Source: Escherichia coli (GTDB taxonomy: Bacteria > Pseudomonadota > Gammaproteobacteria > Enterobacterales > Enterobacteriaceae). From it: a DNA stretch of 64,000 nt. The notes below the pieces were generated by a model. It worked only from the letters and a program-made list of their open reading frames with translations, made no database searches and had not been told where the DNA came from. The DNA is taken from NCBI RefSeq assembly GCF_003790525.1, contig NZ_CP033635.1; one strand, written 5' to 3'. Within the stretch, counting starts at the first letter, position 1. The number at the start of each line of letters is the position of its first letter. Both the position numbers and the translations under genes were made by a program. Shown one piece after another: positions 14,250 through 19,196 of the stretch.

Positions 14250-14288
14250 GAAAAGAAAAATGCCGGATGACACAAAGGTCATCCGGCA
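14250..14288 (-). terminator. Intrinsic terminator of htpG
   Basis: 11-bp stem TGCCGGATGAC/GTCATCCGGCA 6 nt after the htpG stop, followed on the transcribed strand by a T-rich run (TTTTTCTTTT). Confidence 0.65.
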
Positions 14289-14293
14289 TGACA

Positions 14294-16168
14294 TCAGGAA
14301 ACCAGCAGCTGGTTCATACGACGAATAAACAGGTTCGGATCTTCCAGCGTGCCGCGTTCTGCCAGCAGCGCCTGATCCAGCAGCAGTTCTACCCACTCGC
14401 TGAACTTGGCTTCATCTTCAGTATCTGCCGCACGTTTCACCAGTACGTGATCCGGGTTCAGTTCGAAGATGTATTTCACTTCCGGCACTTTCTGGCCCGC
14501 TGCGGCAAACAGTTTCGCTATCTGGGTGCTCATTTCGTCCGCGTCGGTAGAGACAATCGCTGGCGTATCGGTCAGACGGTGAGTCAGACGGACATCTTTC
14601 ACGCGCTCGCCGAGCAGGGCTTTCACACGGTCGATGAACGGAGTCAGTGCTTTCTCCGCTTCTTTCGCGCTCTCATCAACTTCGTCAGCCAGTTTTTCCA
14701 GCGACTCGTCAACTTTAGACACAGACTGGAACGGTTTACCGTCGAACTCAGTCAGATAGTTCATCATCCACTCATCGATGCGGTCGGAAAGCAGCAGAAC
14801 TTCGATGCCTTTCTTACGCAGCAGTTCCAGGTGCGGGCTGCTCTTCGCTGCCGCATAGCTGTCTGCGGTGATGTAGTAGATTTTCTCCTGCCCTTCTTTC
14901 ATGCGGGAAACGTAGTCTTCCAGAGATACGGTCTGCGCAGAAGAATCGGTATGGGTAGAAGCAAAACGCAGCAATTTGGCGATCGCTTCCTGGTTAGCGA
15001 AATCTTCCGCCGGACCTTCTTTCAGTACCAGGCCAAACTGTTGCCAGAAGGTCTGGTATTTTTCCGCGTCGTCTTTCGCCAGTTTTTCCAGCATTTGCAG
15101 CACACGCTTGGTCAGCGCATTGCGCAGGTTACGCGTTACCGTGCTGTCCTGGAGGATTTCACGGGAAACGTTCAGCGGCAGATCGCTGGAGTCAATCAGA
15201 CCACGCACGAAGCGCAGATAGTTCGGCATGAACTGTTCTGCGTCGTCCATGATGAACACACGCTGGACGTACAGTTTCAGTCCGTGTTTATGATCGCGGT
15301 TCCACATATCCCACGGAGCCTGGGACGGAATGTACAGCAGGCTGGTGTACTCCTGCTTACCTTCAACGCGGTTGTGGCTCCAGGTCAGCGGATCGTTAAA
15401 GTCGTGGGCGATGTGTTTGTAGAACTCTTTGTACTCTTCATCGGTGATTTCCGACTTGTTACGAGTCCACAGCGCCTGCGCTTTGTTGATTTTCTCCCAG
15501 GAGATAACGGTTTCGCCGTCTTTCTCTTCGCGTTTTTCGATCTCTACCGGCAGCGCGATATGGTCGGAGTATTTGCTGATGATGGAACGCACGCGCCAGT
15601 CATCGAGGAACTCGTCTTCGCCTTCACGCAGATGCAGGGTGATTTCAGTACCACGATCTTCTTTGGTGATATCGGCAACGGTGTATTCACCTTCGCCAGC
15701 CGATTCCCAGAAGACGCCATTTTCTGGTTTTTCGCCTGCCGCGCGAGTACGCACGGTCACTTTGTCGGCCACGATAAACGCAGAGTAGAAACCAACACCA
15801 AACTGACCGATCAGCTGGCTGTCTTTCGCCTGGTCAGAACCCAGGGATTCGAGGAATGATTTGGTGCCGGATTTAGCGATAGTCCCCAGATGGTCAATCA
15901 CTTCGTCGCGGGTCATCCCCACGCCGTTATCGGAGATGGTCAGCGTGCGCTTGTCTTTATCGAAAGAGACACGAACGCGCAGTTCGCCATCACCTTCGTA
16001 CAGGTCCGGGTTAGAGAGCGCGCGGAAACGCAGCTTGTCCGCCGCATCGGAGGCGTTAGAGATAAGCTCACGCAGGAAGATTTCTTTATTGGAATAGAGA
16101 GAATGGATCATCAGGTGCAGAAGCTGTTTCACTTCTGACTGAAAACCACGAGTTTCTTGTCCTTTCAT
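14294..16168 (-). CDS. htpG: Chaperone HtpG (Hsp90), 624 aa
   Basis: ORF track 624 aa; GHKL ATPase N-domain sequence recognised. Confidence 0.97.
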
Positions 16169-16217
16169 GTAGGTCTACCTCAATAATGCCATTTTAAGGT
16201 TAAAAACAGGATGAGGG

Positions 16218-16250
16218 AGAGATGGGGACAAGGGAGAATAATTTCAAGCG
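16218..16250 (-). promoter_or_regulatory. sigma32 heat-shock promoter of htpG
   Basis: Transcribed strand reads CTTGAAA-N14-CCCCATCT about 45 nt upstream of the htpG ATG; matches the sigma32 consensus. Confidence 0.65.
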
Positions 16251-16277
16251 AGAGCAGGTGATCCTGCTCTCGTTTGC

Positions 16278-16882
16278 TTAAAAACGAATCTTATGACGCC
16301 CGGCAAGGGAGTGTGACAGCGTGGTGCCATCGACCATTTCCAGTTCGCCGCCAACCGGTACGCCATGAGCGATTCGGCTGGCTTCCACGTCATATTGCGC
16401 ACAAAGCTCGGCAATGTAGTTAGCGGTAGCTTCACCTTCAACCGTGGGATTGGTGGCGAGGATCACTTCAGTGATTTTTTCCTCTGCCAGACGCTGTTCC
16501 AGACGATCAAGGCCGATATCATCCGGACCGATGCCGTCCAGCGGTGACAGATGCCCCATCAACACAAAATAACGACCTGAAAACTGCCCCGTCTGCTCAA
16601 TGGCGTAAATGTCCGCCGGACTCTCCACCACGCAGATTTGACCGTTTTCCTGACGACGCGGATTCGAACAGATGTTACAGACTTCCTGTTCGGTGAAGGT
16701 GCGGCAATCGGCGCAGTGGCCGATTTCCGACATCGCCCGGGTGAGCGCCTGCGCCAGACGCATCCCGCCGCTACGATCGCGCTGAAGCAGCGTGAACGCC
16801 ATACGCTGCGCCGACTTCGGGCCAACGCCCGGCAGACAGCGCAGTGCTTCCATAAGCTGTGTTAACAGCGGGCTGGTTTGCA

Positions 16883-16883
<1 letters not shown>
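16278..16883 (-). CDS. recR: Recombination protein RecR (201 aa)
   Basis: ORF track 201 aa; C4 zinc-finger (CxxC...CxxC) and Toprim-domain sequence. Confidence 0.95.
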
Positions 16884-17264: not shown

Positions 17265-19196
17265 TCAAATGGGGCGGATACTTTCTTCATCCAGCTCCGC
17301 ATCGAAGAATCGACGCAGGGTCTGAATATTATTATCCGCAATAATGGACTCGCGCGCCTGCGCAAGTTTTTCTTCGTATATCGCCTGACGCCATTCCAGC
17401 GGCGTACGCACCGCGGGATTATCATCTTCAACGATAGTCAGTTCAACCGTTGAACCTTTTAACGTGCTCAACGCTTCAGCCAGTTTTTGCTGTGCGCCGC
17501 GGTTGTTCAAATGCCGCTGAGAGGAGCGCAAATGCAGACATACTGCGTTGTCGCTCTCCTCTTTCCAGGCATTTAACGCCACCTGTTCGACCAGTTTTGG
17601 TAGCGAAAGTTGACTCACCTGAGCCGCCCACGGGTCGCGCTCAATGGCTTCTGCCGCCAGCTTCGCCGCCAGTTCCGGCGTTTTTTCATGTTCCAGCGCT
17701 TTTTTCAGCGCCTTCGGCGTGGCGACCACTTCTTTTTGCTGCATCACTGGAGTGGTCGCCTTCCAGCGATACGCTTCTTTTTTGGCTGGCGCTTTTTCCA
17801 GCGCCGATGGCACCGGGCGCGCCTGAACGCGATCGGTGACCGAAGCCAGTCTTTCCAGCGCAGCGTTATTCACCGGCCGCGCGCGGGTAGCGGCTGCCGG
17901 TTCACTCTTTTTTGCTTTGGTTGCTCCCTGCACGCGCTGCAACTGCTGGCGCGCCGCCAGCACCTGGCTGGTGGTTTCCGGGAGCGGTACAGTCGGTGCC
18001 TGCTGCGGCGCTGATTGCGGTTGCGGCGGCACCTGGGTTGGCGTCATTACTGCCGTTGGCGCAACGGGCGCAAAGGACTGGCGTGGCACTTCTGGCTCAG
18101 GCAGAGGCATACGCGGATGGAACGCCAGCGCGCGCAGCAGCGTCATCTCAACGCCCATGCGGCGGTCCGGCGCATACGGTAATTCTTTGCGACCAATCAA
18201 CAGCGTTTGATAGTAAAGCTGAATATCCGTCGGCGGTATGGTACGCGCCAGTTCACGCATCCGCAGCTCGATGGCGGCCATGTCGTTGCCAAGTGCAGCA
18301 GGCGAAAGTTGTACCATCGCAATACGATGCAACAAACCGAGCATTTCCACCAGCAACGCTTCCCACTCGATACCACGGGCAGCAGCTTCATTAATTAGCG
18401 CCATTACGCGCTCGCCGTTGGCCTCGACCATCGCTTCAACCAGCGACAACGCCTGATCGTCGTCAAGCGTACCCAGCATCGCACTGACGGCCTGGGTTGA
18501 AACCTGGCCGTCACCGCTGGCAATCGCCTGGTCGGTCAGACTTAAGGCATCTCGCAAGCTGCCTTCAGCGGCGCGCGCCAGTAATTGCAACGCCCGCGGC
18601 TCGTGAGCGATATGTTCTTCGTTGAGGATGTGCTCAAGCTGATGGCGAATTTGCTCGACATCCAGCGCCTTGAGATGGAATTGCAGACAGCGCGACAAAA
18701 TCGTCACCGGCAATTTCTGCGGATCGGTCGTCGCCAGCAGAAACTTAACGTGCTCCGGCGGCTCTTCAAGGGTTTTTAACAGTGCGTTAAAGCTGTGGCG
18801 CGACAGCATATGCACTTCGTCGATGAGATAAACTTTGAAACGACCACGCGCCGGAGCGTACTGGACGTTATCCAGCAGGTCGCGAGTGTCTTCAACTTTA
18901 GTACGCGAGGCGGCGTCGATTTCAATCAGATCGACAAAGCGCCCCTGCTCGATTTCACGACAGTTATCGCACACGCCGCACGGCGTCGCGGTAATGCCGG
19001 TTTCGCAGTTTAGCCCCTTCGCCAGCAGTCGGGCGATAGAGGTTTTTCCGACGCCACGGGTACCGGAAAAAAGATAAGCATGATGAATACGCCCTAACGA
19101 CAAGCCGTTCGCCAGTGCGGTCAGCACATGTTCCTGGCCGACGACGTCAGCAAAGGTTTGTGGGCGCCATTTTCGGGCTAAGACCTGATAACTCAT
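17265..19196 (-). CDS. dnaX: DNA polymerase III subunits tau (full length, 643 aa) and gamma (via frameshift)
   Basis: ORF track 643 aa; AAA+ Walker A GTRGVGKT; contains the known frameshift heptamer. Confidence 0.97.
   Translation of the reverse strand: MSYQVLARKWRPQTFADVVGQEHVLTALANGLSLGRIHHAYLFSGTRGVGKTSIARLLAKGLNCETGITATPCGVCDNCREIEQGRFVDLIEIDAASRTKVEDTRDLLDNVQYAPARGRFKVYLIDEVHMLSRHSFNALLKTLEEPPEHVKFLLATTDPQKLPVTILSRCLQFHLKALDVEQIRHQLEHILNEEHIAHEPRALQLLARAAEGSLRDALSLTDQAIASGDGQVSTQAVSAMLGTLDDDQALSLVEAMVEANGERVMALINEAAARGIEWEALLVEMLGLLHRIAMVQLSPAALGNDMAAIELRMRELARTIPPTDIQLYYQTLLIGRKELPYAPDRRMGVEMTLLRALAFHPRMPLPEPEVPRQSFAPVAPTAVMTPTQVPPQPQSAPQQAPTVPLPETTSQVLAARQQLQRVQGATKAKKSEPAAATRARPVNNAALERLASVTDRVQARPVPSALEKAPAKKEAYRWKATTPVMQQKEVVATPKALKKALEHEKTPELAAKLAAEAIERDPWAAQVSQLSLPKLVEQVALNAWKEESDNAVCLHLRSSQRHLNNRGAQQKLAEALSTLKGSTVELTIVEDDNPAVRTPLEWRQAIYEEKLAQARESIIADNNIQTLRRFFDAELDEESIRPI
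17907..17913 (-). other. dnaX: dnaX programmed -1 ribosomal frameshift heptamer (A AAA AAG) producing the gamma subunit
   Basis: Reverse complement of 17907-17913 is AAAAAAG, in register with dnaX codons 428-430 (AKKSEPAA context); GC-rich hairpin-capable sequence follows. Confidence 0.85.

Follow-up and report, generated by a model that had tools for sequence, protein, structure and literature searches.

A hairpin without a U tract lies between recR and the directly abutting sigma32 promoter of htpG in Escherichia coli

The window, by which we mean the whole 64-kb stretch of Escherichia coli DNA analysed here, carries dnaX, ybaB, recR and htpG in that order, 5′ to 3′, on its minus strand. 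The 241 bases around the recR-htpG junction can be matched in 5424 of 5426 complete E. coli genomes, many of them at 100%, and the annotation underneath is that of recR and htpG. Published MG1655 coordinates (x) were converted as window = 16278 - (x - 495010), anchored on the end of recR at 495010 and the start of htpG at 495120.

19196-17265, minus strand: dnaX
16278-16883, minus strand: recR coding sequence, 201 aa, with its TAA stop at 16280-16278 (open reading frame list and RefSeq annotation, 100% match; 494405-495010 in MG1655)
16213-16169, minus strand: htpG 5′ UTR
14294-16168, minus strand: htpG coding sequence, 624 aa

An Rfam search at E ≤ 1 returned no family at the recR-htpG junction; its matches were a sub-threshold STnc460 and the programmed -1 frameshift element of dnaX (17932-17868, minus strand; RF00382, 96.8 bits).

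Immediately downstream of the recR stop codon, the transcribed strand can be folded into a stable hairpin.

16249-16272, minus strand: hairpin CGAGAGCAGG-AUCA-CCUGCUCUCG, 10-bp stem, -18.9 kcal/mol
16272-16263, minus strand: 5′ arm of the hairpin
16262-16259, minus strand: loop AUCA
16258-16249, minus strand: 3′ arm of the hairpin

The initial annotation had described a shorter stem at 16251-16270, lying 8 nt after the recR stop. On direct reading its coordinates are exact for an 8-bp core (AGAGCAGG/CCTGCTCT, at 16270-16263 and 16258-16251), which a C-G and a G-C pair lengthen to 10 bp. The core starts at the eighth nucleotide past the stop, with 7 nt between stop and core and 5 nt (GCAAA) between the stop and the full stem. 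A 61-nt context folds at -22.6 kcal/mol, against -9.1 ± 2.4 kcal/mol for shuffled sequences (z = -5.6), and none of 200 shuffles equalled it. The hairpin sequence occurs as a single copy in the window and once per E. coli genome, which rules out a repeat or mobile origin. An identical copy of the 46-mer comprising the hairpin and the -35 element that follows it is carried by 5410 of 5413 E. coli genomes.

Intrinsic terminators are recognised by a stable GC-rich stem-loop, a U-rich tract of about 7-9 nt and an in vivo RNA 3′-end just downstream of the stem. The recR hairpin has the stem-loop and, in published Term-seq data, the RNA end, and it lacks the tract. The first 8 nt past the stem (CUUGAAAU) contain three U, and seven of the nine bases 3′ of the stem are A or U. 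A consensus terminator scan, which requires at least 5 T of 8, left the site uncalled on both strands, in agreement with the earlier remark that the hairpin has no U tract. In contrast, the same scan does pick up the canonical terminator of htpG at 14289-14260.

14260-14289, minus strand: htpG canonical terminator, a 12-bp stem followed by UUUUCUUUUC

The recR stop-codon context UUUUAAGC (16283-16276) is complementary to GCUUGAAA in the -35 region (16249-16242), and with these bases the predicted hairpin grows to 17 pairs. This extended lower stem is 84.6% paired in the 17-species alignment described below, with 0 compensatory changes and a G-C pair in only 4 of the 17 species. We regard it as unsupported. 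Other functions constrain both sides, and the complementarity probably reflects no more than a chance match of the Phe-stop codons to TTGAAA.

The hairpin and the htpG promoter meet without a gap, as had been proposed. Position 16248, the base that follows the 10-bp stem, is the first base of the -35 element, and the CG that precedes CTTGAAA is part of the stem.

16242-16248, minus strand: -35 element CTTGAAA, first base directly after the stem
16220-16227, minus strand: -10 element CCCCATCT, 14 nt past the -35 element

CTTGAAA-N14-CCCCATCT is the classical htpG heat-shock promoter, which was reportedly defined by Cowing et al. in 1985 and is said to have been revisited by Nonaka et al. in 2006. 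The initial annotation called it near-consensus. It is a perfect match at 14 of 14 specified bases (16248-16220), and the sole one in 64 kb, where 0 were expected. A sigma32 promoter is recognised by a -35 CTTGAA(A) and a -10 CCCCATNT separated by about 13-15 nt, a start 6-8 nt downstream of the -10, and RpoH occupancy with stress induction; all of these can be found at htpG, the last two in literature data only. The two elements begin 21 nt apart, an offset that is the same across orthologues, and GCTTGAA is invariant in the 17-species alignment. With a -35 consensus of CTTGAA and dnaK P1 reading CTTGAAG-N13-CCCCATTT (PMC10216364), the htpG promoter differs from dnaK P1 in a spacer that is 1 nt longer.

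The htpG transcription start has been mapped by SMRT-Cappable-seq to 495075, or window 16213 on the minus strand, 7 nt past the -10 element (Yan et al., 2018; PMC6131387, supplementary files 3 and 4). The start is consistent with the element; a mismatch between the two, which the initial annotation had named as grounds for discarding its reading, did not appear. By ChIP-exo there is one predominant RpoH site at htpG, and the promoter is induced along with those of dnaK, ibpA and groS. The mapped start and the single RpoH site bear out the suggestion of an independent heat-shock promoter for htpG. A second sigma32 promoter (htpG1/htpG2 in the literature) was also considered and rejected: no other credible match lies within 16150-16500, and the single ChIP-exo site agrees.

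Published transcript maps place an RNA 3′-end at the hairpin. In the Term-seq data of Adams et al. (2021), the end 495042(+) is classified as “primary, recR” with 1798 reads (PMC7815308, supplementary file 1, LB at OD 0.4); of the three growth conditions only this one lists it, and the read count is modest. The table gives 50 nt, the end and 10 nt, a layout checked on chiX and sgrS, and the flanking sequence is that of this hairpin.

16246, minus strand: recR RNA 3′-end (MG1655 495042), between ...CUCGCUU and GAAA, 3 nt past the stem (Term-seq, coordinates converted)

Other “primary” ends in the same data lie 4-5 nt past GC stems that have no U run, at panD (146275) and can (141973; PMC7815308), so the architecture of the recR end is not unusual. 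The TERMITe supplements contain no recR or htpG entry, and a full-text literature search with the promoter and hairpin sequences gave no match.

The SMRT-Cappable-seq units agree with an end at recR (Yan et al., 2018; PMC6131387). They comprise apt-dnaX-ybaB-recR (start 491310), dnaX-ybaB-recR (start 492054) and ybaB-recR (starts 493875 and 493964), and all units from these four upstream starts stop at recR. Downstream, htpG and htpG-adk units both begin at 495075; the htpG transcript end at 497033 (window 14255) falls within the terminator U tract, and some transcripts run on into adk. A promoter that feeds the ybaB-recR transcripts ending at the hairpin can be found 5 nt upstream of the published start 493875 (window 17413).

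17418-17446, minus strand: sigma70-like promoter TTGAAC-17-GATAAT, inside the dnaX 3′-end

No unit joining recR (b0472) to htpG (b0473) is included in the SMRT-Cappable-seq list, an absence of limited power given that recR transcripts are rare and that read-through stopping inside htpG goes unscored. It is nonetheless meaningful, because the protocol selected for long RNAs, the longest read defines the unit when the end is undefined, and read-through of at least 5% was seen at about 75% of E. coli termination sites, with more of it at poorer U tracts (PMC6131387).

We also compared the junction across species. A RecR scan of species-representative genomes yielded 80 loci, from Escherichia to Vibrio. 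A short recR-htpG spacer was found in 35 of the 80 and in one further truncated locus, all of them from Enterobacteriaceae or Erwiniaceae. At the short-spacer loci the -35 element starts 28-31 nt past the recR stop (41 nt in one case). A hairpin of -11 to -21.5 kcal/mol fills the gap between stop and -35 in all 35 species and in the truncated locus, and its 3′ arm ends at, or overlaps, the C of CTTGAAA. The number of U in the 8 nt past the stem is two to four across the 35 species. Stem sequences are unrelated between genera (GAGAGCAGG, GGAGGCAG, GGGGGCA, ACGGCACG, GCCGGCGTT and GCTGATGTT).

Covariation was assessed on a gapless, structure-blind MAFFT alignment of 17 Enterobacteriaceae. Compensatory changes were present in nine of the ten stem pairs and 94.7% of cells were paired, against 42-55% when the stem partners were slid by 1-3 columns; none of 500 shuffles reached the observed covariation score. 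The sense RNA hairpin is more stable than its antisense counterpart in 22 of 35 species (mean -16.7 vs -15.4 kcal/mol, uncorrected for phylogeny). Judged from sequence comparison, the hairpin is selected as a sense-strand RNA structure and not as a sequence motif, because covariation accompanies unrelated stem sequences and stability is greater on the sense strand.

Other Enterobacterales families (Yersinia, Serratia, Pectobacterium, Photorhabdus, Morganella) have 50-200 nt between the recR hairpin and the -35 element. A classical U tract follows the hairpin in Pectobacterium, Morganella, Arsenophonus, Proteus, Budvicia and Acerihabitans, and the hairpin is U-less in Dickeya, Serratia and other long-spacer relatives. 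In Vibrionaceae, a textbook A-tract/stem/U-tract terminator follows recR, and htpG lies elsewhere. The simplest history suggested by this distribution would be that recR originally ended in an intrinsic terminator which, in the Enterobacteriaceae-Erwiniaceae lineage, came to lie tightly against the promoter of htpG. In Enterobacteriaceae, the stem is preceded by a conserved CAAAC and followed by a conserved GCUUG, which may be what is left of the A-tract and U-tract flanks.

We interpret the junction as the meeting point of two adjacent transcription units: the hairpin would be the 3′-end element of recR-containing transcripts, and htpG a separate sigma32 unit. We put the probability of this reading at roughly 80%. 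The recR hairpin is on this account a non-canonical terminator or an exonuclease stop, and the 3′-end was most likely formed by non-canonical intrinsic termination. We favour intrinsic termination because the ancestral terminator was probably intrinsic, the tail is A/U-rich, no Rho signal has been reported and no co-transcripts have been seen. The lack of a U tract and the failure of the consensus scan to call the site count against it. In the mechanism we envisage, the GC-rich stem would form in the nascent RNA 5 nt past the recR stop, and the A/U-rich -35 region CUUGAAAUU would make the RNA:DNA hybrid behind it in place of a U run. With the -35 element substituting for a U tract in this way, RNA polymerase would terminate at the hairpin rather than further downstream. 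The released or trimmed recR RNA would end at ...GCUU. The 3-nt overhang is closer to the stem than the nascent termination point, which suggests at least some exonuclease trimming. The sigma32 promoter begins at the next base after the stem and would give rise to a separate htpG mRNA from window 16213.

The mapped end could also be a product of trimming throughout. Polymerase would then pass the hairpin, Rho would load on C-rich promoter and leader RNA and terminate downstream, and exonucleases would trim the transcript back to a protective hairpin, leaving the CUU overhang. This fits a stem that has no U tract and a 3′-end only 3 nt from it, as well as the U-less hairpins after recR in long-spacer relatives such as Dickeya and Serratia. 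It also follows the general model of Dar and Sorek (2018; PMC6061677). With 22 C and 9 G, the 78 nt past the hairpin (16248-16171, minus strand) reach the 97.6th percentile of the window for a C-rich, G-poor composition and so fit a Rho-loading site, from which downstream termination and trimming to the hairpin may follow. Against it, the table of Rho termination regions of Adams et al. contains no recR or htpG entry, recR transcripts being rare (PMC7815308, supplementary file 2). Translation of htpG, moreover, starts 78 nt past the mapped end and would hinder Rho, and the clear U tracts of the outgroups point to an intrinsic terminator as the ancestral element. On balance we consider this route a serious rival, if somewhat doubtful. 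As a separate observation, the composition of 16248-16171 is mostly due to the sigma32 -10 element, the spacer and the leader.

A leaky hairpin, which would let a substantial share of dnaX-ybaB-recR transcripts enter htpG and supply HtpG independently of sigma32, is suggested by the missing canonical U tract and by the frequency of read-through in E. coli, and was close to the partial read-through originally proposed for this junction. The maps do not support that proposal, with the Term-seq end 3 nt past the stem (PMC7815308) and no b0472-b0473 unit despite the longest-read rule and the size selection (PMC6131387); read-through at a low level, or of a kind that stops inside htpG, is possible. 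Moreover, any read-through RNA might be poorly translated. The transcribed promoter contains CCCUCA, which spans the htpG start and can pair with UGAGG, the Shine-Dalgarno sequence of htpG. Over 33 species, the predicted unpaired probability of the Shine-Dalgarno is 0.04 in read-through RNA, as opposed to 0.34 in RNA from the native start and 0.16 when the promoter segment is shuffled. We therefore find substantial leakage unlikely. The palindrome might instead act on the other strand, as an antisense terminator for transcripts leaving htpG, or as DNA, by forming a cruciform or binding a protein and so modulating the sigma32 promoter. The plus-strand stem is followed by TTTGCTTA (16273-16280), in which 5 of 8 bases are T, a better tail than that of the sense strand, and the upstream CAAAC is conserved in Enterobacteriaceae. 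However, pairing has been kept while the stem sequence has not, which argues against a sequence-specific protein site; the G-U pairs favour stability of the sense RNA in the 22 of 35 species noted above; and Erwiniaceae do not have a T-rich antisense tail. The Term-seq tables show no opposite-strand 3′-end near 4950xx (PMC7815308), and the terminator scan calls the site on neither strand. An antisense or DNA-level role is on these grounds very improbable, and we reject it.

The junction could in principle also serve as a dual-use insulator, in which the -35 element would act as a weak-hybrid terminator tail and the CCCUCA pairing would silence translation of any read-through RNA that escapes. 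Built on predicted folding, this is a speculative idea that we rate as improbable. The pairing is untestable by covariation because CCCUCA and UGAGG are both nearly invariant. A 7-bp complement between the promoter spacer and htpG codons 3-5 (CUUGUCC/GGACAAG) is not conserved in other species and was attributed to chance.

The htpG leader itself has some further features. The block AAATGGCATTGTTGAGGT in the 5′ UTR (16200-16176, minus strand) is strongly conserved across Enterobacteriaceae, and Rfam gave no match there. In the native E. coli leader, a predicted ACCUUAA/UUGAGGU pairing occludes the Shine-Dalgarno (unpaired probability 0.01). If this folding prediction holds, the 5′ UTR pairing could be thermometer-like.

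The recR hairpin resembles E. coli intrinsic terminators in its GC-rich 10-bp stem-loop just past a stop codon and in an RNA 3′-end a few nucleotides past the stem, and a textbook hairpin and U tract occupy the orthologous position in Vibrio, Proteus, Morganella and Arsenophonus. Unlike them, it has no U run, and its tail CUUGAAAUU coincides with the -35 hexamer of the promoter that follows. With the protective 3′ stem-loops of Rho-terminated transcripts (Dar and Sorek, 2018), it shares a 3′-end at the foot of a U-less stable hairpin and C-rich, G-poor RNA downstream. It differs from them in that a translated gene lies 78 nt downstream and that the tables of Adams et al. contain no bicyclomycin-sensitive region for recR or htpG. 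The promoter is like other sigma32 heat-shock promoters in its perfect CTTGAAA and CCCCATNT, its start 7 nt past the -10, its RpoH occupancy and its joint induction. Compact terminator-promoter junctions of co-directional bacterial genes likewise place end and start signals on adjacent or overlapping bases, but the recR-htpG abutment is exact (0-1 nt) and conserved in the sampled Enterobacteriaceae and Erwiniaceae.

All features of the junction have already been mapped in E. coli K-12; the covariation across families and the gapless contact add neat detail without making the element a new type. Beyond annotation the junction matters little, as it comprises a mapped dnaX-ybaB-recR end and a classical htpG promoter in the best-studied bacterium. 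It does offer a clean natural example of a covariation-supported, U-less 3′-end hairpin packed on the next promoter, which scanners based on U tracts miss and which is relevant to terminator prediction. Anyone cloning the htpG promoter to sense heat or burden should be aware that the terminator-like recR hairpin immediately precedes its -35 element. The recR and htpG units share DNA at a compacted junction and little or no RNA. Should the insulator idea prove true, HtpG would be made strictly from sigma32-initiated mRNA, and the sampled Enterobacteriaceae and Erwiniaceae would be fixed for the use of a -35 element as a terminator tail.
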